Source: a bacterium (GTDB lineage: Bacteria; Patescibacteriota; Saccharimonadia; CAILAD01; GCA-016700035). Taken from it: 64,000 nucleotides of DNA. The position numbers were made by a program, and so were the translations under genes. The DNA lies in NCBI GenBank assembly GCA_016700035.1, contig CP064998.1:662699-726698 (forward strand), in the 5' to 3' direction. Under the pieces are notes generated by a model. It ran no database searches. It saw only the letters and a program-made list of their open reading frames with translations, and had not been told where the DNA came from. Below, in pieces: positions 13,974 through 60,403 of this stretch; position 1 is the first letter of the stretch; the number at the start of each line of letters is the position of its first letter.

Positions 13974-14498
13974 TCAGTCGCCGGCGACAGACTGTTGCGC
14001 CTCTTCGGTGAGCTGCCGGATCTCCGTGGAGACTCGGCTGGACTTGATGGCGCCAGGCTCGTCGGCCTTGGCTGGAACGGCGAGGAATTCACCATCAACC
14101 AGGGATGTGCCAGTGGTACCCGTCAGGAGGCGTGACAGACGCACCCATTCAGTCTGGTACCGGGCGAGCTCGAGAGATTTGGCCTCATCCGAGAGACTGT
14201 CCTCTCGTACTCGTGCTTCAATGAGTGTGTTCGGGAACACCGCCAGTGCGGCGCTCTCAAGACTGTCGCCCTCCCGCGCCTGCAGGATGATGGCGTGGTC
14301 GTAGACCTTGCCGATGTCCTCGGCAGTGTTAACCGTCGGGGAATCGGCCTGAATCAGCATAAAGATAGCAAGGATCACAAAGACTCCTGCAACCACACCG
14401 CTGATCCACCAGACTCGGTGGCCCTTGCTACCTTCATCGAGTGGGCGAAGCGTAGTGCTCTGGCGCTCGGTCTTGCGAGACTCTTCGGTTATGGGCAT
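13974..14498 (-). CDS. membrane-anchored hypothetical protein, high GC
   Basis: single TM helix WWISGVVAGVFVILAIFMLI; strong SD AGGAGG; promoter TTGACA-17-TATAAA at 14550-14578. Confidence 0.55.
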   Translation of the reverse strand: MPITEESRKTERQSTTLRPLDEGSKGHRVWWISGVVAGVFVILAIFMLIQADSPTVNTAEDIGKVYDHAIILQAREGDSLESAALAVFPNTLIEARVREDSLSDEAKSLELARYQTEWVRLSRLLTGTTGTSLVDGEFLAVPAKADEPGAIKSSRVSTEIRQLTEEAQQSVAGD

Positions 14499-14598
14499 AG
14501 CTGACCTCCTAATGGGTCGTCAGATACTGCATGGTGCAATAACCCGCTATTTATAGCAAAAAGCTAGTTTTTTGTCAAGGAGATTTAACATCCACCCC

Positions 14599-17028
14599 TT
14601 AATGAGCGGTTACAAAGTTGACTAACCTATCCGGCACCACAATAACTTTGATGACCTGCAAGCCATGCGTCCAGTTATGCTCGGCATCTAGACCACGCGC
14701 CTGATCCTCTATAGCACCAGGTAACTTACCTGCCTCCATCACAAACTCACCGCGCAACTTGCCATTTACCTGCACTGCAATTGTTACTAATTCATCACGA
14801 GTTTTAGCTTCATCAAAAGTAGGCCAAGCTTCCAGATGTACACTTTCCTCTTCACCCAACTCCTGCCATAATTCTTCGGCCAAAAATGGCGCAAAGGGCG
14901 CCAAAAGGCGGACGAATGTTTGCACATGCTCACGCCAAAGCTCAACCGAAACATCGCTCGCTCGCTGAACCTTAGTGAGTAGGGTGATGTACTCCATCAT
15001 CGAGGCAATGGCAGTATTAAATCGAGTACTCTCTAGATCCTCAGTAATTTTTTTGACCAGCTTATGTAGGGACGTATCGAGTGCTGTCTCACTCGTGGCG
15101 TCAATAACATTGGGTTCATATTGAGCCGAAATTGTGCCATAAACTTTCTGCAAAAAGCGGTATGTCCCCTCAAACCGTTGCGGATCCCACGGCCCACCAT
15201 CTTCCCACGGCCCCATAAACATCAGGTACAGACGCACCGCATCAGCGCCGTATTTTTCGACATACTGCATCGGGTCTATCACATTACCTTTAGATTTGCT
15301 CATCTTATTACCATCCGGACCGAGAATCATACCCTGATTAATTAGCTTGGTAAACGGCTCCTGAAAATCTATTAAGCCAGCATCATACAAAAACTTAGCG
15401 ATAAAGCGCGCGTACAGCAAGTGCAGAATAGCATGCTCCACCCCACCCATGTAGCGATCGACTGGCAACCAGGTCTTAACTGCTTCTGGATCGAATGCAC
15501 CATCTTGATACTGTGTATTTGGATAGCGTAAGAAGTACCAGCTTGAATCAACAAAAGTATCCATCGTGTCGGTTTCGCGACGAGCATTGGTATTGCCACA
15601 CTTGGGGCAAGTGGCCTTCACGTAATCTGGATGAGTGTGTAGAGGCGAGCGACCAGACTTATCAAACTCCTGCCCCAACGGCAAGACAACCGGGAGCTGA
15701 TCTTCAGGAACTGGTACCACGCCACATTCTTCGCAGTAAATAATCGGAATCGGAGCGCCCCAATAGCGCTGACGTGAGATTAGCCAGTCACGCAAACGGT
15801 AATTAGTTGTGGCCTTTCCAAAACCCCCCTTATGAAGCCACTCCACAATCTTTTTCTTAGCTTCTGGGCTTTTGAGGCCATCAAACTGGCCCGAATTTTG
15901 CATCACACCATCACCGGCGTAAGGCTCGGATGCCTTATCTTGATTGGTAATTACCTCGATAATCTGCAAATTATACTTCTTAGCAAAAGCATGGTCACGC
16001 TCATCATGAGCCGGGACCGCCATGATAGCCCCAGTGCCATAGCCCATTAAGACATAATCTGCCACCCAAACTGGAATTTTTTCGGCATTAGCCGGATTAA
16101 CCACATAGCCACCGGTAAAGACACCAGTCTTTTCCTTGGCCTCCATACGGTCAACATCGGTGCGAGTACCGGCCCATTGTTGGTATTTTTCAACTTCGGA
16201 GCGCTGTTCTTCAGTTATTAGGTCTGCCACCAATGGATGTTCTGGCGCCACCACCATAAAAGTTGATCCAAAAATTGTATCTGGTCGAGTAGTAAATACC
16301 TCCAGCGTACCATCTGCACCATAGACCTTAAATTCTAGATGCGCACCAGCACTACGACCAATCCAGTTACGTTGCTGTTGGCAGACTCGCTCTGGCCAAT
16401 CTAATTCATCCAAATCTTCTAGAAGTCTATCGGCGTAGTCGGTAATAGTAAGATACCACTGCTTTAAATTCTTACGCTCCACTTTTGTACCGCAACGCTC
16501 ACATTCACCATGTACAACTTGCTCATTAGCAAGCACGGTCTGGCAGCTCGGACACCAATTCACCACCCCATCTCGACGAACAGCCTTGCCGGCGTGATAA
16601 AGCTTCAAGAAAAGCCACTGCGTCCACTTATAATAATCGGGCTTAGAAGTATTAATGATACGATCCAAGTCATACATTCCACCCAAAATCTTGTATTGAT
16701 CATGAAAGCTAGCGGTATTTTTATCGGTCCACTCGTCGGCAGGAATACCGTTTTTAATAGCTGCATTCTCAGCTGGCAAGCCAAAAGCATCGTAACCCAA
16801 GGGTTGCAATACATCTTTACCGCGCATCCGCTCAAACCGGCCCAACGTATCGGCCGGTGCAAAATTATACCAGTGCCCAACATGCAAATTGCCCGACGGG
16901 TATGGAAACATCACCAGATTATAAAATGGTGATTTTGGGTCCTTGGACGTTTTGTATATGCCAGACTTTTCCCACACTGCTCGCCATTTAGCCTCAGTGG
17001 CTCGTGGATCATAGCTTGCCTTACTCAT
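14599..17028 (-). CDS. leuS: leucyl-tRNA synthetase
   Basis: HVGHWYNF HIGH motif, KMSKS present, CP1 editing domain, 809 aa. Confidence 0.95.
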   Translation of the reverse strand: MSKASYDPRATEAKWRAVWEKSGIYKTSKDPKSPFYNLVMFPYPSGNLHVGHWYNFAPADTLGRFERMRGKDVLQPLGYDAFGLPAENAAIKNGIPADEWTDKNTASFHDQYKILGGMYDLDRIINTSKPDYYKWTQWLFLKLYHAGKAVRRDGVVNWCPSCQTVLANEQVVHGECERCGTKVERKNLKQWYLTITDYADRLLEDLDELDWPERVCQQQRNWIGRSAGAHLEFKVYGADGTLEVFTTRPDTIFGSTFMVVAPEHPLVADLITEEQRSEVEKYQQWAGTRTDVDRMEAKEKTGVFTGGYVVNPANAEKIPVWVADYVLMGYGTGAIMAVPAHDERDHAFAKKYNLQIIEVITNQDKASEPYAGDGVMQNSGQFDGLKSPEAKKKIVEWLHKGGFGKATTNYRLRDWLISRQRYWGAPIPIIYCEECGVVPVPEDQLPVVLPLGQEFDKSGRSPLHTHPDYVKATCPKCGNTNARRETDTMDTFVDSSWYFLRYPNTQYQDGAFDPEAVKTWLPVDRYMGGVEHAILHLLYARFIAKFLYDAGLIDFQEPFTKLINQGMILGPDGNKMSKSKGNVIDPMQYVEKYGADAVRLYLMFMGPWEDGGPWDPQRFEGTYRFLQKVYGTISAQYEPNVIDATSETALDTSLHKLVKKITEDLESTRFNTAIASMMEYITLLTKVQRASDVSVELWREHVQTFVRLLAPFAPFLAEELWQELGEEESVHLEAWPTFDEAKTRDELVTIAVQVNGKLRGEFVMEAGKLPGAIEDQARGLDAEHNWTHGLQVIKVIVVPDRLVNFVTAH

Positions 17029-17067
17029 GGGCGCAATTATACCTGATTATCAGGAGTAAATCGAGGC

Positions 17068-17742
17068 TTACACGGTGTTTGGCTTTTGGGCTTCCACATA
17101 GAAAGTATGCCAATGTTTAGCCACGCCATCGTGGGTTTTACCATCCTCCTCTTCTTCACGAACCTGAATACTATCAAAATCAGTCAGTAATTTTTCTATA
17201 TCTTCCCTGCTATGAAAGTTCATCTTCTTATAGGCGCGTGAACCGTCAGCCAAAGTTTTTCGAGCCCAGTCGTCACGATTGCCAATCAAAATAACCGATA
17301 GTTTCCCACCCGGCTTTAGAGATTCTCTAAGTACCACCCATAAACGGGCAAAATCTTCGGGTGGAGTGAATTGCAGGCTCAAATAGGCGACAGCTAGATC
17401 TATCGACTCGTGTTCTAGGTGAGCCGCAAGTTCTTCGTTCGCAACTTTTAGAAACTCCAGGCGCTCAACATCATGCCCAAAATCGTTCACATCCAGCTGT
17501 AAAGATGCTGCTGCGTTTTCCGCACCATCTGTTATGTCGGTTGCAATTACATGTCCAAAACCAGCGTCTAACAGTGCTTTGGTCTCTATCATGTTACCGG
17601 TGCCAATCTCCAACGCAGTTTTGCCCTCAAACGACTCCCCATCCTGTCGCATCGCATCCAAAAGCTGCATCAGTTCTGGTCGCGGAGCCCTTCCTTGGTG
17701 ATGTTCATAGTATTCTCCCCATTGTGTATTGCGCTCTACCAT
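17068..17742 (-). CDS. class I SAM-dependent methyltransferase
   Basis: motif I LEIGTGNMIETKALLDAGFGHVIATDI. Confidence 0.7.
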   Translation of the reverse strand: MVERNTQWGEYYEHHQGRAPRPELMQLLDAMRQDGESFEGKTALEIGTGNMIETKALLDAGFGHVIATDITDGAENAAASLQLDVNDFGHDVERLEFLKVANEELAAHLEHESIDLAVAYLSLQFTPPEDFARLWVVLRESLKPGGKLSVILIGNRDDWARKTLADGSRAYKKMNFHSREDIEKLLTDFDSIQVREEEEDGKTHDGVAKHWHTFYVEAQKPNTV

Positions 17743-17749
17743 AGAACAT

Positions 17750-21163: not shown

Positions 21164-21613
21164 TTGGTTGACCGGGGTTCTAAAGTTGTCTCGGTGGTGG
21201 ACCTACTAGGTCGTCTTTCGCGGTCACAGTTGTATCTGGAAAAGCGAACCATAAACGGATTCAATACGAACGTGAGATGGATCGGGGCGAAGGGATCGCC
21301 TGTCGAGGGTGGTTCTGCGGTACATACCCTCTCTTCATCTCGCCATCGGCACTTGTCGTCAAGCGAGGCAGCAGAGCTCGTGGCCCGATACCGAGCCGGA
21401 GAGAAGATCAAGGATCTCGCGGTCAGCTACAAAATCCACCGCTCCACTGTGATGGCACACTTACGTAGAGGTGGCGAGCTGAAGCACAAGGGCTGGACCG
21501 AGGAGACCACGGCGGAGGCCAGGAAGCTCAGAGCTGCCGGCCTAACGATCGTGGAGATCGCAGCCAGACTTGGACGACCACCGTCGACGGTCCAGAGACG
21601 GCTGAACCAGTAG
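21164..21613 (+). CDS. tandem-HTH protein resembling an IS-transposase N-terminal fragment; high GC
   Basis: two HTH-like segments AELVARYRAGEKIKDLAVSYKIHRSTVMAHLRR and LRAAGLTIVEIAARLGRPPSTVQRRL; no catalytic domain follows. Confidence 0.45.
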   Translation: MVDRGSKVVSVVDLLGRLSRSQLYLEKRTINGFNTNVRWIGAKGSPVEGGSAVHTLSSSRHRHLSSSEAAELVARYRAGEKIKDLAVSYKIHRSTVMAHLRRGGELKHKGWTEETTAEARKLRAAGLTIVEIAARLGRPPSTVQRRLNQ

Positions 21614-23087: not shown

Positions 23088-23164
<77 letters not shown>

Positions 23165-23394
23165 AAGATAATCACGCACCCCTATCATAACATCAATGTT
23201 CTAACGTACTGTTTTGGCTAGAGCGCTTGGGCTTTAAGGCACGACTAGCATCGTGACAGCCAACTTGAGCTATAGCCCCAAGATAATCACGCACCCCTAT
23301 CATAACATCAATGTTCTAACGTACTGTTTTGGCTAGAGCGCTTGGGCTTTAAGGCACGACTAGCATCGTGACAGCCAACTTGAGCTATAGCCCC
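23165..23394. repeat. two tandem 115-bp units immediately 5' of tRNA-Ala, each ending with a copy of the tRNA's first 22 nt
   Basis: ccccaagataatcacgcacccc recurs at 23161, 23276 and 23391. Each unit carries a TTGATG-17-GATTAT promoter-like box and an inverted 16-nt D-arm fragment. Confidence 0.85.
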
Positions 23395-23532: not shown

Positions 23533-23868
23533 CTACGAGACAGCCGAAAGATGTCCGTGCGTAACGGGCCGCTTCTTGCCCGGTGGTTGACGCTTGCGTG
23601 GTTTGCGCCTATCCGCGTGCTTCTGCTTCGAGACTGGCGCCTCATCGACGGCAGTTGGCAAGCGCAAATTGTCCTTCAATCGGTAACCCATCCAGCAATC
23701 CTTATTACAGAATGCTGGTGGCTTGGTGAGCGGGCTGTTCTCATAGTCGTACAGAGTTCGACCAACCGCACCGCACTCTGCGCAAGCTGTGGCGTCGGGG
23801 CGAATCTCTCGCACCGTCCGATAGGTCTTGGTGACACGGACGGCCAGGAAACCTTTTATAGGTGCCAA
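23533..23868 (-). CDS. small zinc-ribbon-like basic protein, high GC
   Basis: CAECG...CNKDC Cys pairs; Lys/Arg/Pro-rich tail. Confidence 0.4.
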   Translation of the reverse strand: MAPIKGFLAVRVTKTYRTVREIRPDATACAECGAVGRTLYDYENSPLTKPPAFCNKDCWMGYRLKDNLRLPTAVDEAPVSKQKHADRRKPRKRQPPGKKRPVTHGHLSAVS

Positions 23869-23991
23869 TGGTGCTCTTTCCTATGGGGTACAAAAACTAT
23901 CGCATAATATATCTTTACTCACAATAAGTCAATTGCTAAAACTATTAATAAGCACTTTCCCAATTACTATACAATTCCTATACTTGATGAA

Positions 23992-26272: not shown

Positions 26273-27415
26273 TTAATAGATGTAGCGGAAAGTACTAGCT
26301 GGTACGGTTCGCGAACTAACTCGGTTCCAACCACCGTTATAGTTCATCTCTGAAACAGTCACCATACCACCGTTAACACTCTCAACGTAGGCCACATGAC
26401 CATATCCGCCCCAGCCGTCAGCTGTTTGAGCAATTGCACCAGCCTGAGGTGCGGCACCAACTGCATAACCTGAAGCGATTGCGTTATAGTACCACTGACT
26501 AGCATTACCCCAGTTACCGGGAATAGACCGTCGGCTTGCTACATAATAAGTGCAGTATCCACGCGTATAGCTATTACCACCAAAAGTCGGCTTAAAGTTG
26601 GCGATGGTTGGCTTAGGCTGAGCGGCAACGCTGGCAAGCCGTGTAACTGGCGCAGGATCTGGACTATTATCTGGCTTAATACCATCTGGGATGATAATCT
26701 TTTGCCCAACCGCTAGTGGTTTGCCCTCTAGCTGGTTAAAGCTATCTATAAGATTAGCACTAGCCTGATAGCGTGAAGCTAGCTCTTCAAGAGTTTCACC
26801 ACCAGTGACAGAATACAGCAGACCATTAACCGGCAATATCGTAAGCTTCGAGCCAGGCTTTAGGACTGCATCGGTCGCTAAGTCATTTGCCCACAGCACT
26901 GTATCACTAGTAACGCCATATTTTTGTGCGATTGCCGAGACGGTTTCACCACCAGCTACTGTATGGATGCTAACCGTTCGATTCGCAACACCACCACTGG
27001 CAATTGGCGCCCTCTTAGAAAGGAATGACTCGCCAGTTGTAGCTAGCTTAGCTTGACCAGCCACAGTTACAGCTCGTTCCTTTACATCGGCCGCAATTAG
27101 CGAATGGCTCTGTTCAGCCAATATCGCCCCAGCCGCCAACATCGTTGATTGATCCTCAGTCGAAGTGGCTCCGCGCCCTCCACCCTTAAGGCCAGTAATA
27201 CTTTCGGCTTGAATTTTACCAGCTGCAACAATAAAAATTGCACCAGCCACAACTAGGGCATGCGAGGCCAGACGCCAGGCGCCACCATGAGAAATTGATT
27301 TTTTTACTTTAGTCCCGTGGCCCATCAAAAATGAATGGGCTGGGCTTTGATTTGTACCCTCTTCAGTCTGAGGGGTGTTTGTGTAAGAAGAAGTCTTCGC
27401 CACTCCATTTAGCAC
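26273..27415 (-). CDS. secreted peptidoglycan hydrolase with two LysM domains and C-terminal CHAP domain
   Basis: LysM consensus (YSVTGGETLEELASRY...GQKIIIP) twice; CHAP Cys in YTRGYCTYYV with downstream His. Confidence 0.8.
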   Translation of the reverse strand: MLNGVAKTSSYTNTPQTEEGTNQSPAHSFLMGHGTKVKKSISHGGAWRLASHALVVAGAIFIVAAGKIQAESITGLKGGGRGATSTEDQSTMLAAGAILAEQSHSLIAADVKERAVTVAGQAKLATTGESFLSKRAPIASGGVANRTVSIHTVAGGETVSAIAQKYGVTSDTVLWANDLATDAVLKPGSKLTILPVNGLLYSVTGGETLEELASRYQASANLIDSFNQLEGKPLAVGQKIIIPDGIKPDNSPDPAPVTRLASVAAQPKPTIANFKPTFGGNSYTRGYCTYYVASRRSIPGNWGNASQWYYNAIASGYAVGAAPQAGAIAQTADGWGGYGHVAYVESVNGGMVTVSEMNYNGGWNRVSSRTVPASTFRYIY

Positions 27416-32449: not shown

Positions 32450-33355
32450 TTGAAAAAGAGCTTTCTATGCGAGATAATCACGCCTGACTTTGTACCTATC
32501 AAAAGAAAGGGAATCGGTCCAATGCACAGTGTTGGCTATAGCTATCACAAGCATGAAGATCCCCCTGTGGTGCGTGAGGTAAAATGGCTACTCGACCAAT
32601 CTGCCTTTTGGCTCCTTGGCTGGTGGCTGCTCATCATGAAGCACTACTGGCCTGGTTCGGCTCGTGTTGTCAACCAGGTGCCAAATGCTATGTCGGTGTT
32701 TCGTATCATCGTCTCACCCTTCGTGGCCTACCAGCTCGGTATGGCGATCCTTGATGGTAATAGCAACTCGGCCTGGATGTGGCTGGGGATTACTGGTGGA
32801 TTAATCGCCCTGGATGGGCTGGATGGCCCACTAGCCCGACGTCTAGATGCCGTGTCCGATTTTGGTAAAGCCATCGACCCGGCCGCCGATAAGCTACTCA
32901 TACTGGTGCTGGCTGTGACCTACTGCGTGGTGGTTTGGCAGCTACAGGGTTGGGCTACATTCGTACCACTTTGTGGCGCCATTCTGTGGGTAATTTGGGT
33001 TGAGTTCAAGCTCATCCTCATTGCGCGCGATACCAAAGCTACTGTAGATATTCTGGGCGACCAAGAATTGCCCGGTGCGAATGTCTTCGGTAAAATAAAG
33101 TTCACCATCCAGTCGCTATCATTTGTACTGGCCTATGTGCTTCTTATCGTCAATCCCGACACTCCAATCGGTGCGCTGTGGTTGACCTTCATGCTCATTG
33201 TGGCTCGCTTCTTTGCCGATAAGAGCCTGCACCAGCACCGCATCGATTTGTGGCAACTGCAGAATCTCGCTCGTAAACGCAAGCTGGATATCCCAGATAC
33301 CCGTTCTGCCAAAGAGCTGATCCGCTGGTCAACTCGACACCACAAGATAGCCTAA
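32450..33355 (+). CDS. CDP-alcohol phosphatidyltransferase (PgsA-like); start uncertain
   Basis: DGLDGPLARRLDAVSDFGKAIDPAADKL is the D-G-x2-A-R...G-x3-D-x3-D signature. Confidence 0.7.
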   Translation: MKKSFLCEIITPDFVPIKRKGIGPMHSVGYSYHKHEDPPVVREVKWLLDQSAFWLLGWWLLIMKHYWPGSARVVNQVPNAMSVFRIIVSPFVAYQLGMAILDGNSNSAWMWLGITGGLIALDGLDGPLARRLDAVSDFGKAIDPAADKLLILVLAVTYCVVVWQLQGWATFVPLCGAILWVIWVEFKLILIARDTKATVDILGDQELPGANVFGKIKFTIQSLSFVLAYVLLIVNPDTPIGALWLTFMLIVARFFADKSLHQHRIDLWQLQNLARKRKLDIPDTRSAKELIRWSTRHHKIA

Positions 33356-36138: not shown

Positions 36139-36426
36139 ATGACCAAGAAGCGAGCCATCGTGGCGCTGTTGAGTGCCATCGCCGTGATCATCGGCGTCAT
36201 CATCTTCGGCGGTAGCGCCGGCGCCACGTCGTACTACGACGACAGCTACGGGTGCTACGAAACCCCGGAGACCACAACCACAACCGAGGTCGCCACGACC
36301 ACGGTGCTCGAGACGACCACGACGACCTCCATGCCGTCAACAACGACGACCGCGCCTGAGACAACCACGACCGCGCCGGATCTTGCCCACACCAGAGCTG
36401 ATCCCACCAGTCGTCATCGTGCGTGA
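36139..36426 (+). CDS. membrane-anchored or secreted Thr-rich low-complexity protein, high GC; possibly frameshifted
   Basis: SD AAAGGGAG; N-terminal TM; TTTTTEVATTTVLETTTTTSMPSTTTTAPETTTTAP repeats; terminator at 36518-36555. Confidence 0.45.
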   Translation: MTKKRAIVALLSAIAVIIGVIIFGGSAGATSYYDDSYGCYETPETTTTTEVATTTVLETTTTTSMPSTTTTAPETTTTAPDLAHTRADPTSRHRA

Positions 36427-36576
36427 AACTCCCCCGACAGCACCTACTCCGGCCTCGCCGGCCACAGACTTGCCCGGTAAGGCACTCAAGTTCACCGGCT
36501 AAGCATTGCTTCTACCCCAAAGGGGCGCCCATCTCAGGGCGCCCCTTCAACTTTATCTAACACTAAACGGCTCTAT

Positions 36577-38161: not shown

Positions 38162-38281
38162 AGAAAAATATTCCTTATTTCACTATGCAGTGTAGCATAA
38201 GGGGTTTCGGAGAGTACAGTACTTGATTTTTAATGTAAATAGTTGCAAAATATGAGCATTCGCGACGTAATAAGGAGTGCG

Positions 38282-38527
38282 ATGAGTACCTTCGACCCCG
38301 AGCTCTATGAAGATCTCTACGATCATTTCGGTCACGACGACAGCGACGATACCTATGGCCTAACAACTTGGTTTGAATCTCATGAGGCAGAGGAGATCGT
38401 TCAATTCTGTATGATGCACAACATCTGCCCAGTAGAGCTCGCATACCGGGGTATCAACGCAATCATGCACGCCACCATATCATCCGACGCACTAGCTGTC
38501 GTCTTGCGTATTCCCCCGTGTAACTAA
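38282..38527 (+). CDS. small acidic hypothetical protein, high GC
   Basis: SD AAGGAG before ATG at 38282; terminator hairpin cgccacacatcgatgtggcg plus T-run at 38534-38563. Confidence 0.4.
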   Translation: MSTFDPELYEDLYDHFGHDDSDDTYGLTTWFESHEAEEIVQFCMMHNICPVELAYRGINAIMHATISSDALAVVLRIPPCN

Positions 38528-38563
38528 AGTAGCTTACGCCACACATCGATGTGGCGTTTTTAC

Positions 38564-39605
38564 TTAAATAACTCCACCACCAAGAACGGCCTCGCCATCA
38601 TAAATGACAGCATGCTGGCCCGATGCCACACCACGATGAGCACCGGCCAATAAGTTAATTCGCCAAACTCCATCAGCTTGTTCGTGTAACGTGCAGGTCA
38701 ATAGTTCCCCCAAATGACGAATCCGGACTAAGTACTGTTTAGCTGACTCTGGCTCCTGCCACCAAACAGTGTCGCTAATATCATAATAACTGCGCCTCAA
38801 CTGCGATGGATCTGCCGTAACTACAATACTATTGGTCGCAAGGTCTTTTGATAACACATAGTATGGGGTTCCGCCGCCCACACCCAAGCCATGGCGCTGG
38901 CCGATTGTATACAACACCGCACCATGATGTATACCTAACTCTTTTCCGGACTCATCAAGGATGGGGCCTTTGAAGATCCATAAATTCACCTAAAAAATCT
39001 TTTAACGGCACCTTACCCACAAAACACAGGCCCATACTTTCACGTCGATTAGCCGTTGGTAGTCCATATTTTTTAGCCAGCCCCCTCACTTCAGTTTTTT
39101 CATACTCTCCCAGCGGAAAAAGTACTTGTCGCGCAGACTGAGTCGGCATTCGATACAAGAAATATGTTTGATCCTTTTTCTTATCGATAGCCTGCATAAG
39201 TCGACCCTCCAACATGCGAGCATAATGACCAGTGGCCACAAAATCAGCTCCATCGGCTCGACACAAATTATAAAACAGAGAAAATTTTATATCTTCATTG
39301 CATAGTATATCAGGATTTGGAGTCAGACCTCGCGCATATGCCTGCACCATCACATCAACCACCCGCTGACGATACTCCTCTTGCAAATCAAAAACTTTGA
39401 GCTCAATGCCAAGATGTGCAGCCACACTTTTTGCCGAACGCAAGTCATCTTCCCACGGACACTGATTGCCAGCAATATCTTGAGTCCAATTTTTCATATA
39501 TGCGCCCACCACATGATGACCCTGTTCTAAAAGTAGAGCGGCCGTAACGCTCGAATCAACTCCGCCGGAAAGCCCAACATAGACAGTTTTTTGTGGATGT
39601 CTCAT
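38564..39605 (-). pseudogene. mnmA: tRNA 2-thiouridylase MnmA split by a 1-nt frameshift near 38955-38990
   Basis: Upstream ORF carries the PP-loop SGGVDSS and ends ...LKDFLGEFMDLQRPHP*. Downstream ORF continues IFKGPILDESGKELGIHHG...GQRHGLGVGG. The junction lies in an A4/T6 homopolymer context. Confidence 0.7.
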
Positions 39606-39635
39606 AGTTGACTATCTTATCTAAATATTTTACTA

Positions 39636-40037
39636 TTGACAAGCTATTTGTACCCTACCCAACGGAGTAATGTCCGCATGTCAACCCATACCCCTTGGCT
39701 CCAACACCCCAACGCCGTCGATCGCAGGTACTTCGTTGCCAGCAGTCACGATGGAGCCTACCACTGCAAGACCAATCGTGGCCAGATCGAAATCTGGCAC
39801 CGTAGCGCAAGTTACGCCGTCCTGCCCGGGGGCAAGAGACGCGTTAATAGCTATGACACCCAAGATCCAGCCAATGCCCAACTGGTTGAAAACACCAGAA
39901 AAGATCCTCGTCATGCCATCGCAGCCCACCTGGGTTGCAAGATTGACGACGTCTATGCCGAGGATGAGCCCGATATCCTGCGCAATATCAGTCCTTTCCC
40001 CAAGGCTGGGATCGGATCGGTCGGTCAAAACTCCTAA
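39636..40037 (+). CDS. hypothetical protein, high GC
   Basis: Of three overlapping frames here, only this one has strong C-ending third positions. A terminator hairpin plus T-run follows at 40050-40083. Confidence 0.5.
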   Translation: MTSYLYPTQRSNVRMSTHTPWLQHPNAVDRRYFVASSHDGAYHCKTNRGQIEIWHRSASYAVLPGGKRRVNSYDTQDPANAQLVENTRKDPRHAIAAHLGCKIDDVYAEDEPDILRNISPFPKAGIGSVGQNS

Positions 40038-40106
40038 TCCTCAAGGAGATACCCATCACTTCACGGTGGTGGGCTTTTTAATTACAATTTTCATTAAATC
40101 AAAAAA

Positions 40107-49624: not shown

Positions 49625-49660
49625 TTTAAAAAGTCAGCTCGTTTTCACGAACTGACCTAG
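49625..49660 (-). terminator. rho-independent terminator of the zinc-ribbon gene (minus strand)
   Basis: minus strand reads gtcagttcgtgaaaacgagctgac followed by TTTTT. Confidence 0.5.
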
Positions 49661-49998
49661 ATATTGTGCTGAGCAGCGGAAGCGATCTCACAATCCAATA
49701 TACTTGCCAGAGCCTGATGAAAATCCAGCACATCATCATGCGTGATGGCTGGCGCTATATCCGAACGCTTGGGGTCCAGTAGCTCATCTGGCATCTTCCA
49801 AATCCTCTTTGGGCAACCAGCCGCCAGGAGGATATCTACCACATTTGGTGGAGTATGGCGAACTGCCAGCAAGCCACAAAATGAGCAGAAAAAGCTATAA
49901 ACAGATTCGTTGGTAGCTTCACAGCTGGAGATGACAACCTGGTCTGAGCTAAGCTCAACATCTCCGCAACTAAAACAAGTCACCTTGATTAGAGCCAT
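49657..49998 (-). CDS. Cys-rich zinc-ribbon protein; start taken at MALIKVTCFSCGD
   Basis: CxxC...CxxC pairs. Confidence 0.4.
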   Translation of the reverse strand: MALIKVTCFSCGDVELSSDQVVISSCEATNESVYSFFCSFCGLLAVRHTPPNVVDILLAAGCPKRIWKMPDELLDPKRSDIAPAITHDDVLDFHQALASILDCEIASAAQHNI

Positions 49999-50178
49999 AT
50001 CAATCCCCTCTCTTAGGTGCACTATATAAGTGCAATTGTACACGCCATATAACCGGATTCATATATAAAATGCTAGTGTTAGACATTTTTATAAGCCTGT
50101 GGCATAATATTTACCCAGAACAAGTGGCCCTTGGGGGCTATTTTTTATGATTTATTAAAGTATTAAACTTGGAAAATT

Positions 50179-52013: not shown

Positions 52014-55000
52014 CTAAAGTTTTTTCAACGGTGCAAAATTTAAATTCAAACGCTTAATCCCCACTCGCTCAAACGAGACCTGCACATCATGATCTTCAAT
52101 GTCTAACACCTTCCCCACCCCAAACATGGCGTGCTCCACTGTGTCACCAATTTCCAGCTCCACTACATGCTCCAGCTCATCTGGAAACGGGTCACTTCGG
52201 TAGCCAGCATCACGATTCTTATCTGAACCAAATCTTGGCAAACCAACCCCCAGTCTATGACCCCCAATAATTAAGCCGGCCTCTGAGTAATCTGGTGGAA
52301 TCTCCATAATAAAGCGCGAGATAGTATTGCGCTGAGTGGAGCCATACAATAAACGCATCGTGGCATGTGTGAGGTATAAACGCTCACGAGCCCTGGTCAT
52401 TCCCACATAGCAAAGTCGTCGCTCTTCCTCTAGCTCGGCCGGTTCAAATAAAGTGCGGGAATGCGGAAGAATTCCCTCCTCCATACCAATCATAAACACC
52501 ACTCGAAACTCCAGCCCTTTGGCGGCATGCAACGTCATAAGAGTAACCGCATCAGTACTCGTCTCCCATCCGTCCAAGTCGGTTACGAGTGAAATTTCCG
52601 ACAAAAACTCCTCCAGTGCCGTAGTGCCAAAGCCACGTGCCACGCCCAGAAATTCCTGCACGTTTTCAATTCGATCACCAGCCGTTAAAGATCCGTCATT
52701 AAGCGCATCTAAATAGCCAGTTTTTTTCAAAATTAACTCAGCTAGCTCAGCTACCGGCAAACGCTCCGAAGACTCCCGAAAATCATGGATGAGAGTAGCA
52801 AACCCCTCGAAAGCTGCTTTGGCTTTTGGTGTTAGGCCTGGAATTTCTCCAGCACTGGCACAAGCCGTGAGGATATCTAGATCGTGCAAAGACGCATAAT
52901 CACTCATTACCGCCAGAGACTTATCCCCCAGCCCCCGAGCTGGCACATTTACAATCCGGCGCCAACTCACGGTGTCCTGTGGGTTAGCCACAAATCGCAT
53001 ATAAGCCAAGGTGTCTTTAATCTCTTTACGCTCATAGAAACGCAGACCACCAACGATTTGATACGGCATATTGTAGCGTAAAAATGATTCTTCCAAACTG
53101 CGTGACTGAGCGTTTGTGCGATACAATACTGCACAATCAGAATACTTATAACCCTGCTCGGCCACCAACTTATCGATCGCCTGAATAACAAACTGCCCTT
53201 CAGCCTGCTCATCCGCAACCTGCTGAATAATAATTTTTTCACCCTGGCCCAGTTGAGTAAAGAGTTGCTTATCGGTACGTACTGTATTTTTAGTAATAAC
53301 CGAATGGGCAGCATCTAATATGTGCTGGGTAGAACGGTAATTCTGTTCCAGCTTGATGACTTTAGCGTTCGGATAGTCTGACTCAAAATTTAATATATTC
53401 TCATAATTTGCGCCCCGCCACGAGTAAATTGAATTATGCACAGCCACCCCATCTACTATATAATTATGCACTTTGCTAATATCCAAGTCGTAAACAAATC
53501 CTTGGTATGATTCACGCTCCACCTTGACAATACGATCGTCAATGAGCTGGCCACGAGCGTTGAGAGTTGGCAAAACCATGTCCTTATATACCTGACCAGC
53601 CAACATAAAGGAAAATTTTTGGGCTGTCAGAAAACCATATTTTGTTACCCGCATAGCTGGGTTCGCAAAACTAAGTAGGGTGGCCTCGAGAGAGCCATAG
53701 TCCAGACTATGTATTTCTGCTCGATGTGTGCCGGCTCTGCCAGACCTTACCCGTAAACCAGCCTGAGTAAGAATCTCTAGAGCAATTTTGCTTGTGGTAT
53801 TCACCGATAGCCGGCTGGCCGACCATGGGCTTATCCGACTAACTCGCTTATCCCCAAAAAGCACCAAATTAACATTTACGCGGCTCTGCTCGCCTCGAGT
53901 TGTAGCCTGTGGTGAAAAATGCGGATAATCATAATCCAATCTAAAATCTGCCATAAGTGACTTAGCCCTCTCGGTTGTGTCAATCTCTTGATACAACGTA
54001 TTGATCTGCTGTTGCGATAGGCTCATCGAGCGATTTGGCAAGGCATGAAAGACCATCATTGGTATGCCGTATTTATAGGCCAGCAAAGACTCTTGCAGTA
54101 TCGCATCAGATCGGTTTTGCGTAACGGCTAAAACCCACATACTATCCGCTCGTTCTTGATTGGCTCGCACCCTCAGGCCGGTATCGTACTTCTTGCCGTC
54201 AAACCGTGTTCCTCGAGCTATACCAATACGAAACCCAAACTGCTGTGCATACATTAAGTACACAAAATACGATTCGGTCATACCCCAGCGAGCAAACAAA
54301 ATATGGTTCGGCGTTATCCGTAGCAGTTTACCCGACTCAGTCATAATCTTGATGAGTTCTCCAGAATATTTAAACCGCTTTCTTTTCTGTACCGAAAAGA
54401 ACTGAGTATTCCCATGCCCACTTGCCGATCGCACCTCGTCCCCTTGCGCCACTTGCTCAATCGCCTTCCAGCCAGTCTTGGTCTCAATCTGACTGCCGGT
54501 CGGAATACATTGCCAGTCATCGCCAACTACGCAAATATTGTTGTGAGCCACTGCTAACATTTGGATAAGACGATATTGGGCATGGTTTGTATCTTGATAC
54601 TCGTCTACTAAAATATAGGCAAACTGCTTCTGGTAGCGCTCCAAAACTTCAGTATTTTCCTCAAACAGTCGCACTGTTTGCATAATAATATCGTCAAAAT
54701 CCATCGCGCCATTCTCACGCAAACGGCGTCGATACTCTGGATAGACTCGCGCAGCTGTCTCCTGCATTCTGCCTTGAGCAAGCTTAGCGTATTCGCCAGG
54801 TAAAATCAGCTCATTCTTAGCCGATGAAATGGCTGAGCGAATGGCCTGCGGAGAAAAGACTTTTTCTTCAATGCCCAGATCTTTACAAACCAGCTTCACC
54901 ACCGCCTGTGCATCGGCCTCATCATAAATAACAAAGCTCTGCGGATAGCCAATCTGCATAGCCTCCCGACGCAATATTCGAACAGCAATCGAGTGGAAAG

Positions 55001-55271
55001 TCCCCAAAAAAGGCAGATAACTCCGGTCATCACTGTCTCGACCCAATAGGCTATTAATCCGTTGACGCATCTCCGTTGCCGCCTTATTGGTAAAAGTAAC
55101 CGCCAAAATATTGGATGGATGTATTTTCTTTTCTTCCACCAAATAAGCTATGCGATGAGTCAGCGTCTTAGTTTTACCAGAACCTGCCCCGGCTAGCATT
55201 AATACCGGGCCATCAACCGTTAAAACCCCTTCGCGCTGGGCCTCATTCAAATCCTGCAAGAGTGCGTGCAT
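52014..55271 (-). CDS. pcrA: ATP-dependent DNA helicase PcrA/UvrD interrupted by an in-frame intein
   Basis: AGAGSGKT Walker A, DEYQDTN motif II, motif III split as VVGDDWQ | intein | SIYSWRGA; start taken at MHALLQDL. Confidence 0.85.
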   Translation of the reverse strand: MHALLQDLNEAQREGVLTVDGPVLMLAGAGSGKTKTLTHRIAYLVEEKKIHPSNILAVTFTNKAATEMRQRINSLLGRDSDDRSYLPFLGTFHSIAVRILRREAMQIGYPQSFVIYDEADAQAVVKLVCKDLGIEEKVFSPQAIRSAISSAKNELILPGEYAKLAQGRMQETAARVYPEYRRRLRENGAMDFDDIIMQTVRLFEENTEVLERYQKQFAYILVDEYQDTNHAQYRLIQMLAVAHNNICVVGDDWQCIPTGSQIETKTGWKAIEQVAQGDEVRSASGHGNTQFFSVQKRKRFKYSGELIKIMTESGKLLRITPNHILFARWGMTESYFVYLMYAQQFGFRIGIARGTRFDGKKYDTGLRVRANQERADSMWVLAVTQNRSDAILQESLLAYKYGIPMMVFHALPNRSMSLSQQQINTLYQEIDTTERAKSLMADFRLDYDYPHFSPQATTRGEQSRVNVNLVLFGDKRVSRISPWSASRLSVNTTSKIALEILTQAGLRVRSGRAGTHRAEIHSLDYGSLEATLLSFANPAMRVTKYGFLTAQKFSFMLAGQVYKDMVLPTLNARGQLIDDRIVKVERESYQGFVYDLDISKVHNYIVDGVAVHNSIYSWRGANYENILNFESDYPNAKVIKLEQNYRSTQHILDAAHSVITKNTVRTDKQLFTQLGQGEKIIIQQVADEQAEGQFVIQAIDKLVAEQGYKYSDCAVLYRTNAQSRSLEESFLRYNMPYQIVGGLRFYERKEIKDTLAYMRFVANPQDTVSWRRIVNVPARGLGDKSLAVMSDYASLHDLDILTACASAGEIPGLTPKAKAAFEGFATLIHDFRESSERLPVAELAELILKKTGYLDALNDGSLTAGDRIENVQEFLGVARGFGTTALEEFLSEISLVTDLDGWETSTDAVTLMTLHAAKGLEFRVVFMIGMEEGILPHSRTLFEPAELEEERRLCYVGMTRARERLYLTHATMRLLYGSTQRNTISRFIMEIPPDYSEAGLIIGGHRLGVGLPRFGSDKNRDAGYRSDPFPDELEHVVELEIGDTVEHAMFGVGKVLDIEDHDVQVSFERVGIKRLNLNFAPLKKL
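53433..54509 (-). mobile_element. intein (about 359 aa) in helicase motif III of PcrA/UvrD; coordinates from residue arithmetic
   Basis: Starts with Cys after VVGDDWQ (block A CIPTGSQIET) and has block B ITPNHILF. Block F is FVYDLDISKVHNYIV and block G is VAVHN followed by +1 Ser. Removing it restores VVGDDWQSIYSWRGA. Confidence 0.8.
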
Positions 55272-55373
55272 AATTACCATTCTACCTGAACAAAGCATAA
55301 GCCGAAAGTCTTACGAAAACCTTTATGCTTAAGGTGTTTTTAGTGCGCAAAAAATGTATACTAAAAAATAAGT

Positions 55374-57220: not shown

Positions 57221-57223
57221 AAA

Positions 57224-57991
57224 CTATGATGTAGCTGCCTTTTCGACAATCGCCGCAAAACTCTTGTAGTTGGTACTCGCACCACCCACCAGCAGACCCT
57301 GGCAATCGTGAAGTTTTAGATAACTTAAGGCATTACTGGCATTAACACTACCACCATACAAGAGCGGAATGGCATTGGTGAGGGCTGAGCCATGTATTGT
57401 CGATAGGCACTTTCGGATATACTCAAACATCTCACGCGCATCAGTTGGCCGAGCATTTTCACCGCTACCAATAGCCCAAACTGGCTCGTAGGCAATAATT
57501 ACATCGGCTAGTTCTTCGGGGGTTAAAAGTGAGAGCCCCGTTTCAAGCTGATCGGCCACCACTTGTTTGGCATGACCAGACTCCCGTTCGTGCCGAGTTT
57601 CGCCAATGCATAGAATTGGCGTTAAGTCATGCCGACGCGTGGCGGCAACTTTTTGCGCCACCAAGCCATCTCGCTCCTTAAATGTATGGCGACGCTCAGA
57701 GTGACCACACAAAACATAACTCACTAAATCCGCCACCATAGCAATGCTAATTTCACCAGTAAAAGCTCCTTCATCCATTGGATAAGCGTTCTGCACTCCA
57801 AGAGCAAACTTATCATGCTCGGATAATTCATTGCGTACCGTCGTAATATCGACTGATGGTGGGCATAACACCACTTGTACATCGGCTGGCACACGACCAA
57901 CTTCTTTTTTTAACCGGTTCACTAGCAAGCTAGCTTCTGCCGGTGAGCAGTACATTTTCCAGTTACCAACAATGTAAGTCTTTTTTGCCAT
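57224..57991 (-). CDS. tpiA: triosephosphate isomerase
   Basis: GNWKMY start region and AYEPVWAIGSG, GGSV motifs. Confidence 0.9.
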   Translation of the reverse strand: MAKKTYIVGNWKMYCSPAEASLLVNRLKKEVGRVPADVQVVLCPPSVDITTVRNELSEHDKFALGVQNAYPMDEGAFTGEISIAMVADLVSYVLCGHSERRHTFKERDGLVAQKVAATRRHDLTPILCIGETRHERESGHAKQVVADQLETGLSLLTPEELADVIIAYEPVWAIGSGENARPTDAREMFEYIRKCLSTIHGSALTNAIPLLYGGSVNASNALSYLKLHDCQGLLVGGASTNYKSFAAIVEKAATS

Positions 57992-58025
57992 AATGCTTAT
58001 GTTCTATTGTAGCATTTTATCAATT

Positions 58026-58466
58026 CTAAAAAAGTGCAATTGCCAACAGACGTGACACCATAAATTGCCCAAATAAAATAATCCCCGTATAGATTACCAG
58101 AAATCGCCAGCGCACTCCCTGCCGATAAGCTAGGCGCATTGCAAACAGCCCCAAGGCCAATAAGCTGAATACCAGAGCTAGCTGTAATGCCACATAGATC
58201 TTGCCATTTGGCTCGCACCATAGTGGTAATGTATAAGCCTGTTCATAGCCACAGTTTGCCAATAACGCCAGCACAAAAGACCAAGCCAACCAAAACTCAA
58301 TTAGTAAGAAGGGTGTAAAAAATATTGCCTGCCACCAGCGGGTATATTTTGGCAGCCTTTTTGGTGGAAGTGGCACATTTGCCACATATTTACCACTCCC
58401 CGATCCTTTGCGAACCTGTCGTGATTTATGGCCTGACCGCAACTTAGATACTTTTTTAGCCACCAT
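58026..58466 (-). CDS. hypothetical membrane protein with basic N-terminus
   Basis: 3-4 predicted TM helices. Confidence 0.45.
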   Translation of the reverse strand: MVAKKVSKLRSGHKSRQVRKGSGSGKYVANVPLPPKRLPKYTRWWQAIFFTPFLLIEFWLAWSFVLALLANCGYEQAYTLPLWCEPNGKIYVALQLALVFSLLALGLFAMRLAYRQGVRWRFLVIYTGIILFGQFMVSRLLAIALF

Positions 58467-58467
58467 A

Positions 58468-59883
58468 TTACGCCACCAAGAGCCTTACTGTATCGGTTTT
58501 TCCAGACACCCCAACATGCGTTCCAAAGGCCGACACCACCATGTCACCTTTATTTAATGCGCCACGACGCCGGAAATCGGCAATAACCTCGACATGGATC
58601 AAGCGATTCTTAGGCACCAGAAAAGCTTTACCGCCCCACACTATCGATAGCTGATTGCAGATTCGCTCATCTGGACTAGCCATAATAATCGCTGCATTCG
58701 GTCGCATTGAAGAAATTGACAATGCTGTTGAACCAGTCAGAGTTTCAGCCACTATCAGCTTAGCACCAACATGATTAGCTAGCGTAATAGAGGCTAGATT
58801 AACGGCATCCTGCGCACTATGGGCAGCAGTCAAGAGGCTTGAAGTACCAAGCTGCCGACTCTCCACCAAATAAGCTTCCGAGGATAAGATAATCCGCTTC
58901 ATCATCTGCACAGTCTCAACCGGAAATGCCCCTGTAGCAGTCTCACCCGAGAGCATCACCGCATCCACCCCTAGAGATACTGCCGTAGCCACATCATTCA
59001 CCTCGGCTCGAGTTGGCTGTAAGCTATTAGTCATCGTCTCCAGCATCTGAGTGGCCATAATAACTGGTCGCTTTTTCTCGCGACAAATCCTAATAATCTT
59101 CCGCCCTACAATTGGCACCAGCTCCGGGCTAGTCTCGGTGGCTAAATCACCGCGCGCTATCATCACTACATCTGACGCTTCGATAATTTCATATAAGTTA
59201 TCAACCGCTGGTGCTGTTTCAATTTTTGCAATAATCCGTACATTTTGCTTGGATTTTTTAATAATCGCTCGCAGTCGCTCTATATCTTCTGCAGTATGGA
59301 TAAAAGATAAGGCTATGTAATCAATGTCTTGGGTTAGGCCAAACTTCACATCAGCCAAGTCTTTCTCGGTCAGTTTCGACCCCTCCATGAGTGTATCGGG
59401 TAAATTAATGCCGTGTTGCGAACCAAATTTACCACCACTCAAGACACGCGCTTTAACTACACCAGATCGAGCCGAAACTATCTCTGTTGTCACCTGCCCA
59501 TCACGTAATAATAGACGTTCACCTTTTTTTACTTCACCAGTAAAATCGTACTGAATTGGGATTTGACCGACCTTGGTTGTACCTTCCAGCGCAAACTCCA
59601 ACGTATCCCCAGCTGACACCGAAAGCATCTGCTCCACCGTGCCAATACGGATTTTTGGCCCCTGTAAATCTTGAATAATTGCCACCGAGCGCTTAAGTTT
59701 ATGGGCTGCCACACGAACTTTTTTGATTACCTCAGCATGCCAGCTATGACGGTTATGAGAAAAATTTAATCGTACTCCGTTCACACCAGATTTTAACAAG
59801 GCTTCAATCTTTTCTTCGCTAGCCGGACCAATCGTGGCGATAATTTTAGTCTTTTTATATTGACTGGCATCGATCTTGCTCAT
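58468..59883 (-). CDS. pyk: pyruvate kinase (471 aa; start at MSKIDASQYKKTKIIATIGP, ATG confirmed at 59881-59883)
   Basis: KIIATIGPAS and RLNFSHN motifs. The ORF-track N-terminal extension is non-homologous. Confidence 0.9.
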   Translation of the reverse strand: MSKIDASQYKKTKIIATIGPASEEKIEALLKSGVNGVRLNFSHNRHSWHAEVIKKVRVAAHKLKRSVAIIQDLQGPKIRIGTVEQMLSVSAGDTLEFALEGTTKVGQIPIQYDFTGEVKKGERLLLRDGQVTTEIVSARSGVVKARVLSGGKFGSQHGINLPDTLMEGSKLTEKDLADVKFGLTQDIDYIALSFIHTAEDIERLRAIIKKSKQNVRIIAKIETAPAVDNLYEIIEASDVVMIARGDLATETSPELVPIVGRKIIRICREKKRPVIMATQMLETMTNSLQPTRAEVNDVATAVSLGVDAVMLSGETATGAFPVETVQMMKRIILSSEAYLVESRQLGTSSLLTAAHSAQDAVNLASITLANHVGAKLIVAETLTGSTALSISSMRPNAAIIMASPDERICNQLSIVWGGKAFLVPKNRLIHVEVIADFRRRGALNKGDMVVSAFGTHVGVSGKTDTVRLLVA

Positions 59884-59992
59884 GCCTATATTGTACAGCA
59901 ACATGGACAATCTGCGCTTGTATTGACAAAACATAACTTTTTTGCTATAATAGTTTAGTTCATCGTACCCAAAAACACCCCTAGGAGTTGGC

Positions 59993-60403
59993 ATGCCGCC
60001 ACGTTCCCCCATCCCTCGCCGTGTCGACACCGGCGAACGCGACTTCGTTCGCGAAAGCAAAGTGCAGTTGCGTCGTGAGCGGCGCATCGAGCGCTGGCTC
60101 ATCATCAGCTGCATCGTAGCCATGGCTATCGGTGCGCTCTTGCTACTAGCAGCTAGCAACGCCGTGAGCTGCACCGGCCAGCAGACCGTGAAGGTCTACA
60201 CCGGCGACACTCTCAACACCCTCATTCTGGGCAATGTTGAGGGTGCCATGGACGACTCGGTATCGTTCGAGCAGGTTCGCTACCTCATCACTGAGGAGCA
60301 GCCAAAGCTCAACGGCACCATCTACCATGGTGATGCGGTGCAACTTCCGACAAGCTGTCGGAGCGCTGGTTTCACCTCTGGCTGGGAAAAGAGCAGATCG
60401 TAA
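59993..60403 (+). CDS. membrane-anchored LysM-like domain protein, high GC
   Basis: TM IISCIVAMAIGALLLLAA; VKVYTGDTLNTLILGNV...YHGDAVQLP LysM-like; strong GC-stem terminator at 60412-60458. Confidence 0.5.
   Translation: MPPRSPIPRRVDTGERDFVRESKVQLRRERRIERWLIISCIVAMAIGALLLLAASNAVSCTGQQTVKVYTGDTLNTLILGNVEGAMDDSVSFEQVRYLITEEQPKLNGTIYHGDAVQLPTSCRSAGFTSGWEKSRS

Follow-up and report, generated by a model that had tools for sequence, protein, structure and literature searches.

Small GC-rich genes with a persistent second codon usage in a genome segment of a Saccharimonadia bacterium

We describe here a group of small genes with atypical codon usage in a 64,000-nucleotide stretch of DNA from a bacterium of the Saccharimonadia (the window; contig CP064998.1 of assembly GCA_016700035.1, positions 662,699 to 726,698). 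Twelve genes, five of them beside the transfer-messenger RNA (tmRNA) gene and seven scattered among housekeeping genes, use C-ending codons far more than the long genes of the same window do. This bias is gene-specific, sharply bounded and stationary, and at four of the seven scattered loci it has been kept undiminished in relatives whose synonymous sites are saturated. The reading to which we give somewhat better than even credence is that these are long-resident autonomous small genes, a second codon class held at an equilibrium of its own. The original prediction, which had drawn attention to the seven scattered genes, saw in them repeated gene-sized uptake from a high-GC donor with later domestication of promoters or else a family of moved cassettes.

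Composition, signals and products of the GC-rich genes

The genes of the window encoding at least 200 amino acids (n = 37) served as the core reference, with a GC content at third codon positions (GC3) of 0.42±0.06 and a share of C among third-position pyrimidines, C3/(C3+T3), of 0.32±0.09. Twelve outliers, each shorter than 250 amino acids, lie 2.8-5.5 standard deviations (SD) above this core in C3/(C3+T3) and have a GC3 of 0.59-0.84, and a 150-nt GC scan of the window recovers the same islands. The seven genes listed earlier are thus compositional outliers rich in C-ending codons, as had been claimed, with GC3 values of 0.59-0.79. They and their signals (units i1 to i7), with standard scores (z) against the core, are as follows:

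i1, 13896..14578, minus strand: promoter TTGACA (14578-14573)-17-TATAAA (14555-14550), AGGAGG at 14510-14505, coding sequence 13974-14498 (174 amino acids; GC3 0.69, z=4.1), terminator 13932-13896
i2, 21164..21613, plus strand: GC-rich open reading frame (ORF) 21164-21613 with two resolvase/transposase-type helix-turn-helix (HTH) motifs (GC3 0.65, z=3.6)
i3, 23533..23932, minus strand: promoter TTGACT-17-TATTAT at 23932-23904, ribosome-binding site GGAAAGAG at 23881-23874, TTG start, coding sequence 23533-23868 (111 amino acids; GC3 0.62, z=2.8)
i4, 36139..36545, plus strand: coding sequence 36139-36426 as read (GC3 0.79, z=5.3), terminator 36522-36545
i5, 38272..38557, plus strand: ribosome-binding site AAGGAG at 38272-38277, predicted coding sequence 38282-38527 (81 amino acids, acidic; GC3 0.59, z=3.6), bidirectional terminator 38536-38557
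i6, 39608..40073, plus strand: promoter-like TTGACT-17-TACTAT at 39608-39636, GGAG at 39664-39667, coding sequence 39678-40037 (119 amino acids; GC3 0.62, z=3.6), terminator 40052-40073
i7, 59923..60449, plus strand: promoter TTGACA (59923-59928) ... TATAAT (59946-59951), AGGAG at 59983-59987, coding sequence 59993-60403 (136 amino acids; GC3 0.72, z=4.4), terminator 60419-60449
8180-8503, 8614-9348, 9891-10190, 10344-10700 and 12069-12404: the outliers of the tmRNA region

The difference from the core is almost wholly synonymous. C occupies 0.43 of the third positions of the pooled outliers against 0.16 in the core, and T 0.18 against 0.36; TTC, TAC, ATC, GTC, CTC, GCC, ACC and GGC are favoured over their T-ending partners, AAG and GAG are used in place of AAA and GAA, and the G-ending codons AAG, GAG and CAG are up too. 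Because the shift is mostly from T to C at third positions and the amino acids are almost unchanged, the description of these genes by their C-ending codons is correct, and the near core-like amino-acid composition rules out amino-acid-driven GC content. Relative synonymous codon usage (RSCU) of the pooled outliers correlates with that of high-GC genomes of the Actinomycetota/Chloroflexota type (r 0.82-0.88) and not with that of the window's own core (r -0.06), which agrees with the earlier view of a foreign-looking coding body among signals of resident type. A replication-strand effect is visible in the core, where plus-strand genes have a higher C3 (0.42-0.54), but the minus-strand outlier units are just as biased and this effect therefore does not account for the pattern. 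The GC-rich stretch of the units starts at the start codon, the boundaries are sharp, and the adjoining ends of flanking genes in the window show no rise of GC3 toward the units; GC is raised also in the 3' untranslated hairpins of the units. The two codon classes are not perfectly discrete, since a CDP-alcohol phosphatidyltransferase gene (32450-33355, plus strand; GC3 0.58-0.62 in the window and at the relatives' loci L093 and L094) and the gene of a Cys-rich 128-amino-acid protein (49657-50043, minus strand; GC3 0.48 in the window, 0.58 in L094) are intermediate.

A promoter-like site and a ribosome-binding site are recognisable at i1, i3, i4, i5, i6 and i7, and those of i1 (14578-14550 and 14510-14505) are as first described. 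The strong GC-stem terminators attributed to these genes are present, as a hairpin with a T-run, 3' of five of the seven (i1, i4, i5, i6 and i7) and lacking at i2 and i3. Structured RNAs were considered as the identity of the units and rejected: searches of Rfam with gathering and E-value thresholds find only the tmRNA, the tRNA-Ala and one hammerhead, and none of them lies inside the seven units; the dN/dS values given below show coding. An all-against-all BLASTP comparison of the units is empty, which disposes of a single paralogous cassette family. Profile comparisons between i1, i7 and the lipoprotein encoded at 10344-10700 give a weak resemblance (probabilities 31-52%), suggestive of a LysM-like kinship among the three.

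The product of i1 consists of a variable, fast-evolving N-terminus, one transmembrane (TM) helix and a highly conserved ectodomain, the codon bias being uniform along both the conserved and the variable part; dN/dS is 0.11 against the 92%-identical relative. Its structure model matches LysM structures, with a predicted beta-alpha-alpha-beta ectodomain and a long helical insertion, and by this model i1 is probably a membrane-anchored LysM-like protein. In Pfam at E<=0.1, neither i1 nor i7 matches LysM (PF01476) or any family; a canonical LysM+CHAP protein is encoded elsewhere in the window, at 26273-27415. The i1 family is narrow, with 20 word-index matches, all of the same architecture, and a profile search that matches 10 of 1.84 billion representatives. 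The i1 promoter is kept in relatives, and the 5' leader (14520-14548, minus strand; GGGTTATTGCACCWTGCAGTA), which contains a TGCA..TGCA palindrome that may be a regulatory site, is conserved together with it in L083 and L089. The product of i7, known from six homologues (dN/dS 0.23 against L090), has the same layout and predicted topology as i1, that is, an Arg-rich N-terminus, a TM helix and a predicted beta-alpha-alpha-beta ectodomain. Its structure model is poor (pLDDT 53), and with no Pfam match the designation LysM originally given to i7 is not confirmed; the LysM-like fold is predicted for i1.

The i4 product combines a signal/TM anchor with Thr-rich repeats, which are repeats of Thr codons at the DNA level (pN/pS 0.56). 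In the window, as in L093, the ancestral frame, which runs to 36502 (...KFTG*), is cut short by a +1 frameshift near 36385, so the earlier gene boundary at 36426 is that of a frameshifted gene; the earlier start of i6 at 39636 is likewise to be revised, the ATG at 39678 being probably the true one. The sense frame of i6 has a pN/pS of 0.62 against 0.99 for the antisense ORF chosen by the gene caller in L093. The predicted i3 protein is zinc-ribbon-like (CxxC...CxxxC) with a basic tail and has no family match in Pfam, PHROGs or NCBIfam. The characterisation of i2 as IS-like (insertion sequence-like) holds for its motifs (Pfam HTH_23, 7.5e-11; HTH_7, 5.9e-10) and not for an intact gene: no in-frame start with a ribosome-binding site and no plausible promoter were found, a hairpin covers the first codons, and only the last ~74 nt are recognisable in L083. 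Judged by these features, i2 is most likely the remnant of a decayed HTH gene in the variable segment next to tRNA-Ala. The proposed enrichment in secreted, membrane and LysM proteins amounts to three membrane or surface proteins among the seven listed genes.

Persistence and turnover in relatives

The window was compared with loci of relatives, designated L003, L083, L086, L089-L096 and L098-L101, which include a 99.2% strain (L093) and genomes related to the window at ~92% (L083), ~74% (L089) and ~70% (L086) nucleotide identity. In a search with LeuRS the nearest species representative was L003, at 63% identity, and the homologues of window proteins carry the names Candidatus Saccharibacteria or Patescibacteria, by which the organism is a small-genome bacterium of Saccharibacteria type. 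Assembly chimerism was rejected: independent assemblies from NCBI, JGI, ENA and Logan show these units in the same setting, and stretches of the window are matched in independent assemblies at 100% identity.

Synonymous sites of core genes are saturated between the genomes compared for i1 (pS 0.7-0.85). Relatives with protein identities as low as ~50-58% still have i1, i4, i6 and i7 at the loci where the window has them. The i1 gene directly follows LeuRS in L083, L089, L086, L099 and L100, lies beside TrmB in L098 and, in the more distant L096, just after the tmRNA gene. Across the window and these seven loci its GC3 is 0.67-0.90 against 0.37-0.62 in the flanking LeuRS and TrmB genes, a margin over its neighbours that comes to about +0.2 to +0.45 across the eight lineages. 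In L090, where its GC3 is 0.75, the i7 gene occupies the same locus and is convergent with a histidine kinase gene. The arrangement recurs in the distant L101, with a GC3 of 0.62 for i7 and of 0.39 for the kinase gene, whose protein is 76% identical to the kinase of the window. The orthologue of i4 at its locus in L094 (12795-13181) encodes 128 amino acids, has a GC3 of 0.91 and ends in ...SFTG*; that of i6 (L094, 9569-9928) encodes 119 amino acids at 47% identity (E 5e-28) and has a GC3 of 0.69.

The composition of i1, i4, i6 and i7 does not decay toward that of the genome with divergence, as amelioration would have it. By a simple two-state decay argument of our own, a neutral import older than these splits would be expected to lie within a few hundredths of the core GC3. 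The occupation of the same loci with undiminished bias across saturated divergence excludes both recent uptake and neutral amelioration for these four units, and the proposed repeated uptake does not hold for them. The original prediction had named universal presence at the same loci with matching GC as grounds against uptake; the loci are indeed the same for four of the seven, and the GC does not converge.

The class is not static. Presence/absence polymorphism, which had been suggested as a check, is seen for i5, the i2 segment and one additional unit, and i1, i4, i6 and i7 are syntenic. The i5 unit is present in the window and in L093 and absent from L094 and L095; in these two, the conserved promoter and leader (CCTTATGCTACACTGCATAGTGAAATAAGGAAT) of the gene of a 319-amino-acid protein come immediately after MnmA. 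Conversely, L094 carries an extra GC-rich unit, encoding a 102-amino-acid membrane protein with its own TTGACA-17-TATAAT promoter and terminator, where the window has a 138-nt spacer. The segment between tRNA-Ala and the gene of a 121-amino-acid protein differs in gene content between the window and L083. Absence from the same locus in close relatives is thus found for i5 and largely for i2, and the 92% relative does have i3. Turnover of the class is slow and proceeds through whole units being gained or lost and through the replacement of alleles.

The tmRNA-adjacent block and other features of the window

The window has a GC content of 46.9% and carries most of its genes on the minus strand. 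Its largest GC-rich part surrounds the tmRNA gene. This block, its features and the separate tRNA-Ala gene are as follows:

7905..12540, minus strand: GC-rich segment adjacent to the tmRNA gene, sharing the compositional class of the units
8180-8503 (plus strand), 8614-9348, 9891-10190, 10344-10700 (lipoprotein), 11820-12020 and 12069-12404: genes of this block
9507-9880, minus strand: tmRNA gene (ARAGORN, Rfam)
11509-11564, minus strand: type III hammerhead ribozyme (RF00008), within the non-coding part of the block and on the same strand as the tmRNA
23088-23164, minus strand: tRNA-Ala(GGC), bordering the variable segment that holds i2

The genes of the block have dN/dS values of 0.10-0.45 against L083, with 8180-8503, 8614-9348 and 9891-10190 at 0.10-0.14; these three, like i1 and i7, are measurably under purifying selection. 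The interval between LeuRS and rpmF (L32), which in the window holds i1, TrmB, the tmRNA gene and the GC-rich genes, is expandable: it measures about 170 nt in L003 and contains only the i1 homologue in L086, the block from TrmB to tmRNA being missing there in both, and in L096 the order differs, with i1 after the tmRNA. Allele replacement is seen in the lipoprotein gene 10344-10700, the mature part of which (about 10318-10640) has 29-32% amino-acid identity to the alleles of L083 and L089; these two resemble each other, and the signal peptide and the flanks are conserved. Just downstream of this gene lies a non-coding element of ~85 nt (10233-10317) that is 86-89% conserved even in the 74% relative.

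The hammerhead scores 40.9 bits in the window (the gathering score is 48.5), 50.4 in L089 (12586-12640) and 51.3 in L096 (4767-4821), and lies at ~12935-13000 in L083; its core (CUGAUGAG...CGAAAC) and GUC site do not vary, and covariation is seen in both hairpin stems. The tmRNA tag predicted by ARAGORN, ATSSAVLPIGNPVSQA, is unusual in being without the usual hydrophobic Ala-rich end; the tag predicted for L083 is VTSSAVLPVGNPVSQA, and that of L096 differs. Upstream of tRNA-Ala there are two perfect tandem units of 115 nt (23151-23380), of which L083 has one; each opens with the first 14 nt of the tRNA and holds an inverted copy of tRNA positions ~15-32.

The remaining genes of the window include those of the housekeeping proteins LeuRS, Ddl, a Mur ligase, Obg, AlaRS, MnmA, KsgA and BipA, of a cysteine desulfurase-like aminotransferase, an intein-bearing UvrD/PcrA, a pyrophosphatase, TIM and pyruvate kinase, and a two-component gene pair. 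The UvrD/PcrA-type helicase (52014-55298, minus strand, 1094 amino acids) is credited with intein/Hint domains by the Pfam annotation of orthologues of identical length in L090-L092. The MnmA gene (38564-39605, minus strand), undivided in L093 and other relatives (347-348 amino acids), is broken into the overlapping ORFs 38955-39605 and 38564-38989, the cause being either a genuine frameshift or a fault of the assembly. The segment 3687-5863, which encodes a 421-amino-acid AAA-ATPase (AAA_15/AAA_21/AAA_23 matches) and a 183-amino-acid protein at the position where L083 has an alpha/beta-hydrolase gene, is strain-variable with core-like codon usage and is not GC-rich.

Explanations and comparison with known systems

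According to the reading that we favour, each unit would be a small gene with a sigma-70-type promoter, a Shine-Dalgarno site and an intrinsic terminator of its own, placed between conserved housekeeping operons and encoding a small lineage-restricted protein, in several cases of the envelope (LysM-like i1, the TM protein i7, the Thr-rich anchored i4, and, beside the tmRNA gene, the lipoprotein and a secreted protein). The codon class would be a generic high-GC usage, chiefly NNC for NNT, confined to the coding body, and would represent a gene-specific equilibrium kept by selection on coding sequences or transcripts and not the fading trace of an import. Some members may ultimately descend from high-GC bacteria, perhaps from actinobacterial hosts, and such an origin would be ancient; by itself an ancient import cannot explain the persistence of the bias.

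Separate and fairly recent imports of single genes from a high-GC donor, with a promoter acquired later and a body that has not ameliorated, are in our estimation unlikely. Cultured Saccharibacteria live on high-GC Actinobacteria, and the RSCU correlations, the absence of i5 from L094 and L095, the extra unit of L094 and the different content of the i2 segment in genomes 92% identical would all suit such imports. So would the product of 8180-8503, a small secreted protein with a homologue of 110 amino acids on a Streptomyces plasmid (44% identity over 61 amino acids, pairwise E 1e-17). The proposed check for donor proteins gave this one match; for the i1 and i7 families no donor homologue was found among billions of proteins, nor any homologue outside the clade. 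Moreover, i1, i4, i6 and i7 are syntenic orthologues with undiminished bias, the amino-acid composition of the outliers is core-like and not actinobacterial, and a GC-rich stretch that begins at the start codon is unexpected for an imported fragment. An origin from phages, plasmids or viruses was rejected: PHROGs gives only generic HTH matches for i2, tblastn finds no phage match and IMG/VR holds no relatives. The NCBIfam scan of the units likewise gives nothing besides generic HTH matches for i2.

Ordinary translational selection would hold that these are very highly expressed genes, with promoters close to consensus and strong Shine-Dalgarno sites and terminators, in which NNC is optimal for G34 tRNAs, and that the core drifts to NNT under AT-biased mutation. 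TTC, TAC, AAC, ATC, GGC/GGT and CGC/CGT are generally favoured in highly expressed bacterial genes, the promoters of i1 and i7 read TTGACA-17/18-TATAAT/A with TGn and are combined with AGGAG(G), promoter conservation extends to relatives, and stability over time and sharp gene boundaries would also follow. This explanation is made unlikely, however, by the ribosomal protein genes, where C/(C+T) is 0.12 (S16) and 0.0 (L32), and by the glycolytic and pyrophosphatase genes (0.22-0.30), none of which show a preference for NNC; G-ending codons and the 3' untranslated hairpins are also raised in GC. A further idea, to which we attach a low probability, is that the high-GC style is a selected second dialect that marks envelope and host-interaction genes of Saccharibacteria, the translation of which would respond to tRNA supply or wobble modification (e.g., queuosine or factors obtained from the host) or, in a more radical variant, that the genes are tuned to a high-GC host. 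If this were true, codon usage and not promoters would define a long-kept regulon.

GC-biased gene conversion driven by frequent recombination of surface-protein genes could raise both C- and G-ending codons, and the allele replacement in the lipoprotein gene is confined to its mature part. Yet the flanking core genes, on which recombination would depend for its anchors, show no GC3 gradient, and with the sharp boundaries this makes regional conversion unlikely; in addition, the i1 ectodomain is highly conserved and not diversified, and an effect of +0.3 GC3 is far above the sizes of biased conversion reported for bacteria. Altogether we hold conversion to be very unlikely. Least credible to us is a single family of mobile cassettes that some unrecognised form of recombination carries from one intergenic site to another. 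The uniform architecture (promoter, small GC-rich coding sequence, GC hairpin), the presence or absence of whole units with precise boundaries next to conserved promoters, the position of some units near tRNA or tmRNA genes, and a 13-mer (TTTTTAATTAAGC) found exactly after the terminators of both i1 and i7 could be taken in its favour. The 13-mer is nevertheless coincidental as a cassette signal, as it is not conserved in the relatives of i1 and at i7 runs into the final codons and the stop codon of the convergent kinase gene. Alignments of the flanks share only a generic promoter/terminator consensus, and what the promoters of i1, i7 and 12069-12404 have in common is no more than the -35, the extended -10 and A/T tracts. 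At the unit boundaries in the window, searches for terminal inverted repeats, target duplications and attC-like sites came up empty, and the ORFs scanned contain no recombinase or integrase domain, apart from the HTH fragment i2. Without such repeats, and with units unrelated in sequence, the units do not resemble insertion sequences or miniature inverted-repeat transposable elements (MITEs). Synteny across deep relatives holds for most units, viral and phage collections yielded nothing related, and, for the units examined, the same gene was not found at different loci in different strains. The cassette family of the original prediction is not supported; the products are unrelated save for the weak LysM-like resemblance among three.

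Several points weigh against long-resident genes at an equilibrium of their own. Selection as the force that would maintain it is inferred by exclusion. The case for stationarity consists of GC3 values in 3-8 lineages and a back-of-envelope decay argument, and the comparison covers the ~64 kb of the window and roughly 150 kb of relatives' loci, not whole genomes. High-GC-like codon usage, the Streptomyces homologue of 8180-8503 (the only unit for which a homologue outside the lineage was found) and differences in presence and absence are all predictions of a foreign origin. Donor searches for i3-i6 covered phage, plasmid and profile libraries only. At i3, five of six substitutions relative to L083 fall at third codon positions of the minus-strand frame, in a relative that covers 120 nt, and the assignment of i5 as a coding gene draws on composition and signals only.

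Atypical composition is routinely taken as a sign of recent transfer, and host-derived transfer is often invoked in Saccharibacteria and the candidate phyla radiation (CPR); here it marks old, syntenic genes under purifying selection. If the pattern is genome-wide, composition-based calls of horizontal gene transfer in such genomes would be misleading, and the codon class would offer a sequence signature for lineage-specific envelope proteins (LysM-like anchors, Thr-rich surface proteins, lipoproteins), which probably mediate the epibiotic lifestyle. It also raises the question of what holds a gene-specific GC3 equilibrium in a reduced genome without ordinary translational selection.

Accessory genes of atypical composition are well known, and our literature searches found no description of a pattern such as this one, in which the genes persist instead of ameliorating. 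Like the horizontal-transfer (HT) islets of the Lawrence-Ochman amelioration framework, the units are small, lineage-restricted, inserted between core operons, atypical in codons and to some extent variable in presence; unlike them, they are GC-rich in a genome of lower GC, where acquired and ORFan genes are usually AT-rich, and their bias does not decay at fixed loci. The largest GC-rich block surrounds the tmRNA gene and is absent there in L086 and L003, and i2 lies by tRNA-Ala, which recalls tRNA/tmRNA-linked islands. Such adjacency combined with variability is limited to the 7.9-12.5 kb block and the 21.1-23.1 kb segment; neither an integrase domain nor a direct repeat of the 3' end of the RNA gene was found, the only tRNA-Ala fragments being the 5'-end and inverted ones in the 115-nt units, GC-rich genes stand on both sides of the tmRNA, and four of the seven units are far from RNA genes. 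As in integron cassettes, each unit is one small ORF with an inverted repeat behind it, and the functions are unrelated, but these repeats are ordinary terminators without a common sequence, and the units have their own promoters, are scattered and lack an integrase. The i1 protein, and by predicted topology that of i7, resembles the small LysM proteins of the YneA/ChiZ type in its short cytoplasmic N-terminus, single TM helix and predicted beta-alpha-alpha-beta ectodomain, and i1 differs from them in having no Pfam LysM match and in its long helical insertion. Finally, the TTA/bldA-dependent genes of Streptomyces are also a gene subset marked by a persistent synonymous codon choice; in the Saccharimonadia genes described here, however, the whole coding body is written in another codon dialect, and no dedicated tRNA or modification is linked to it.

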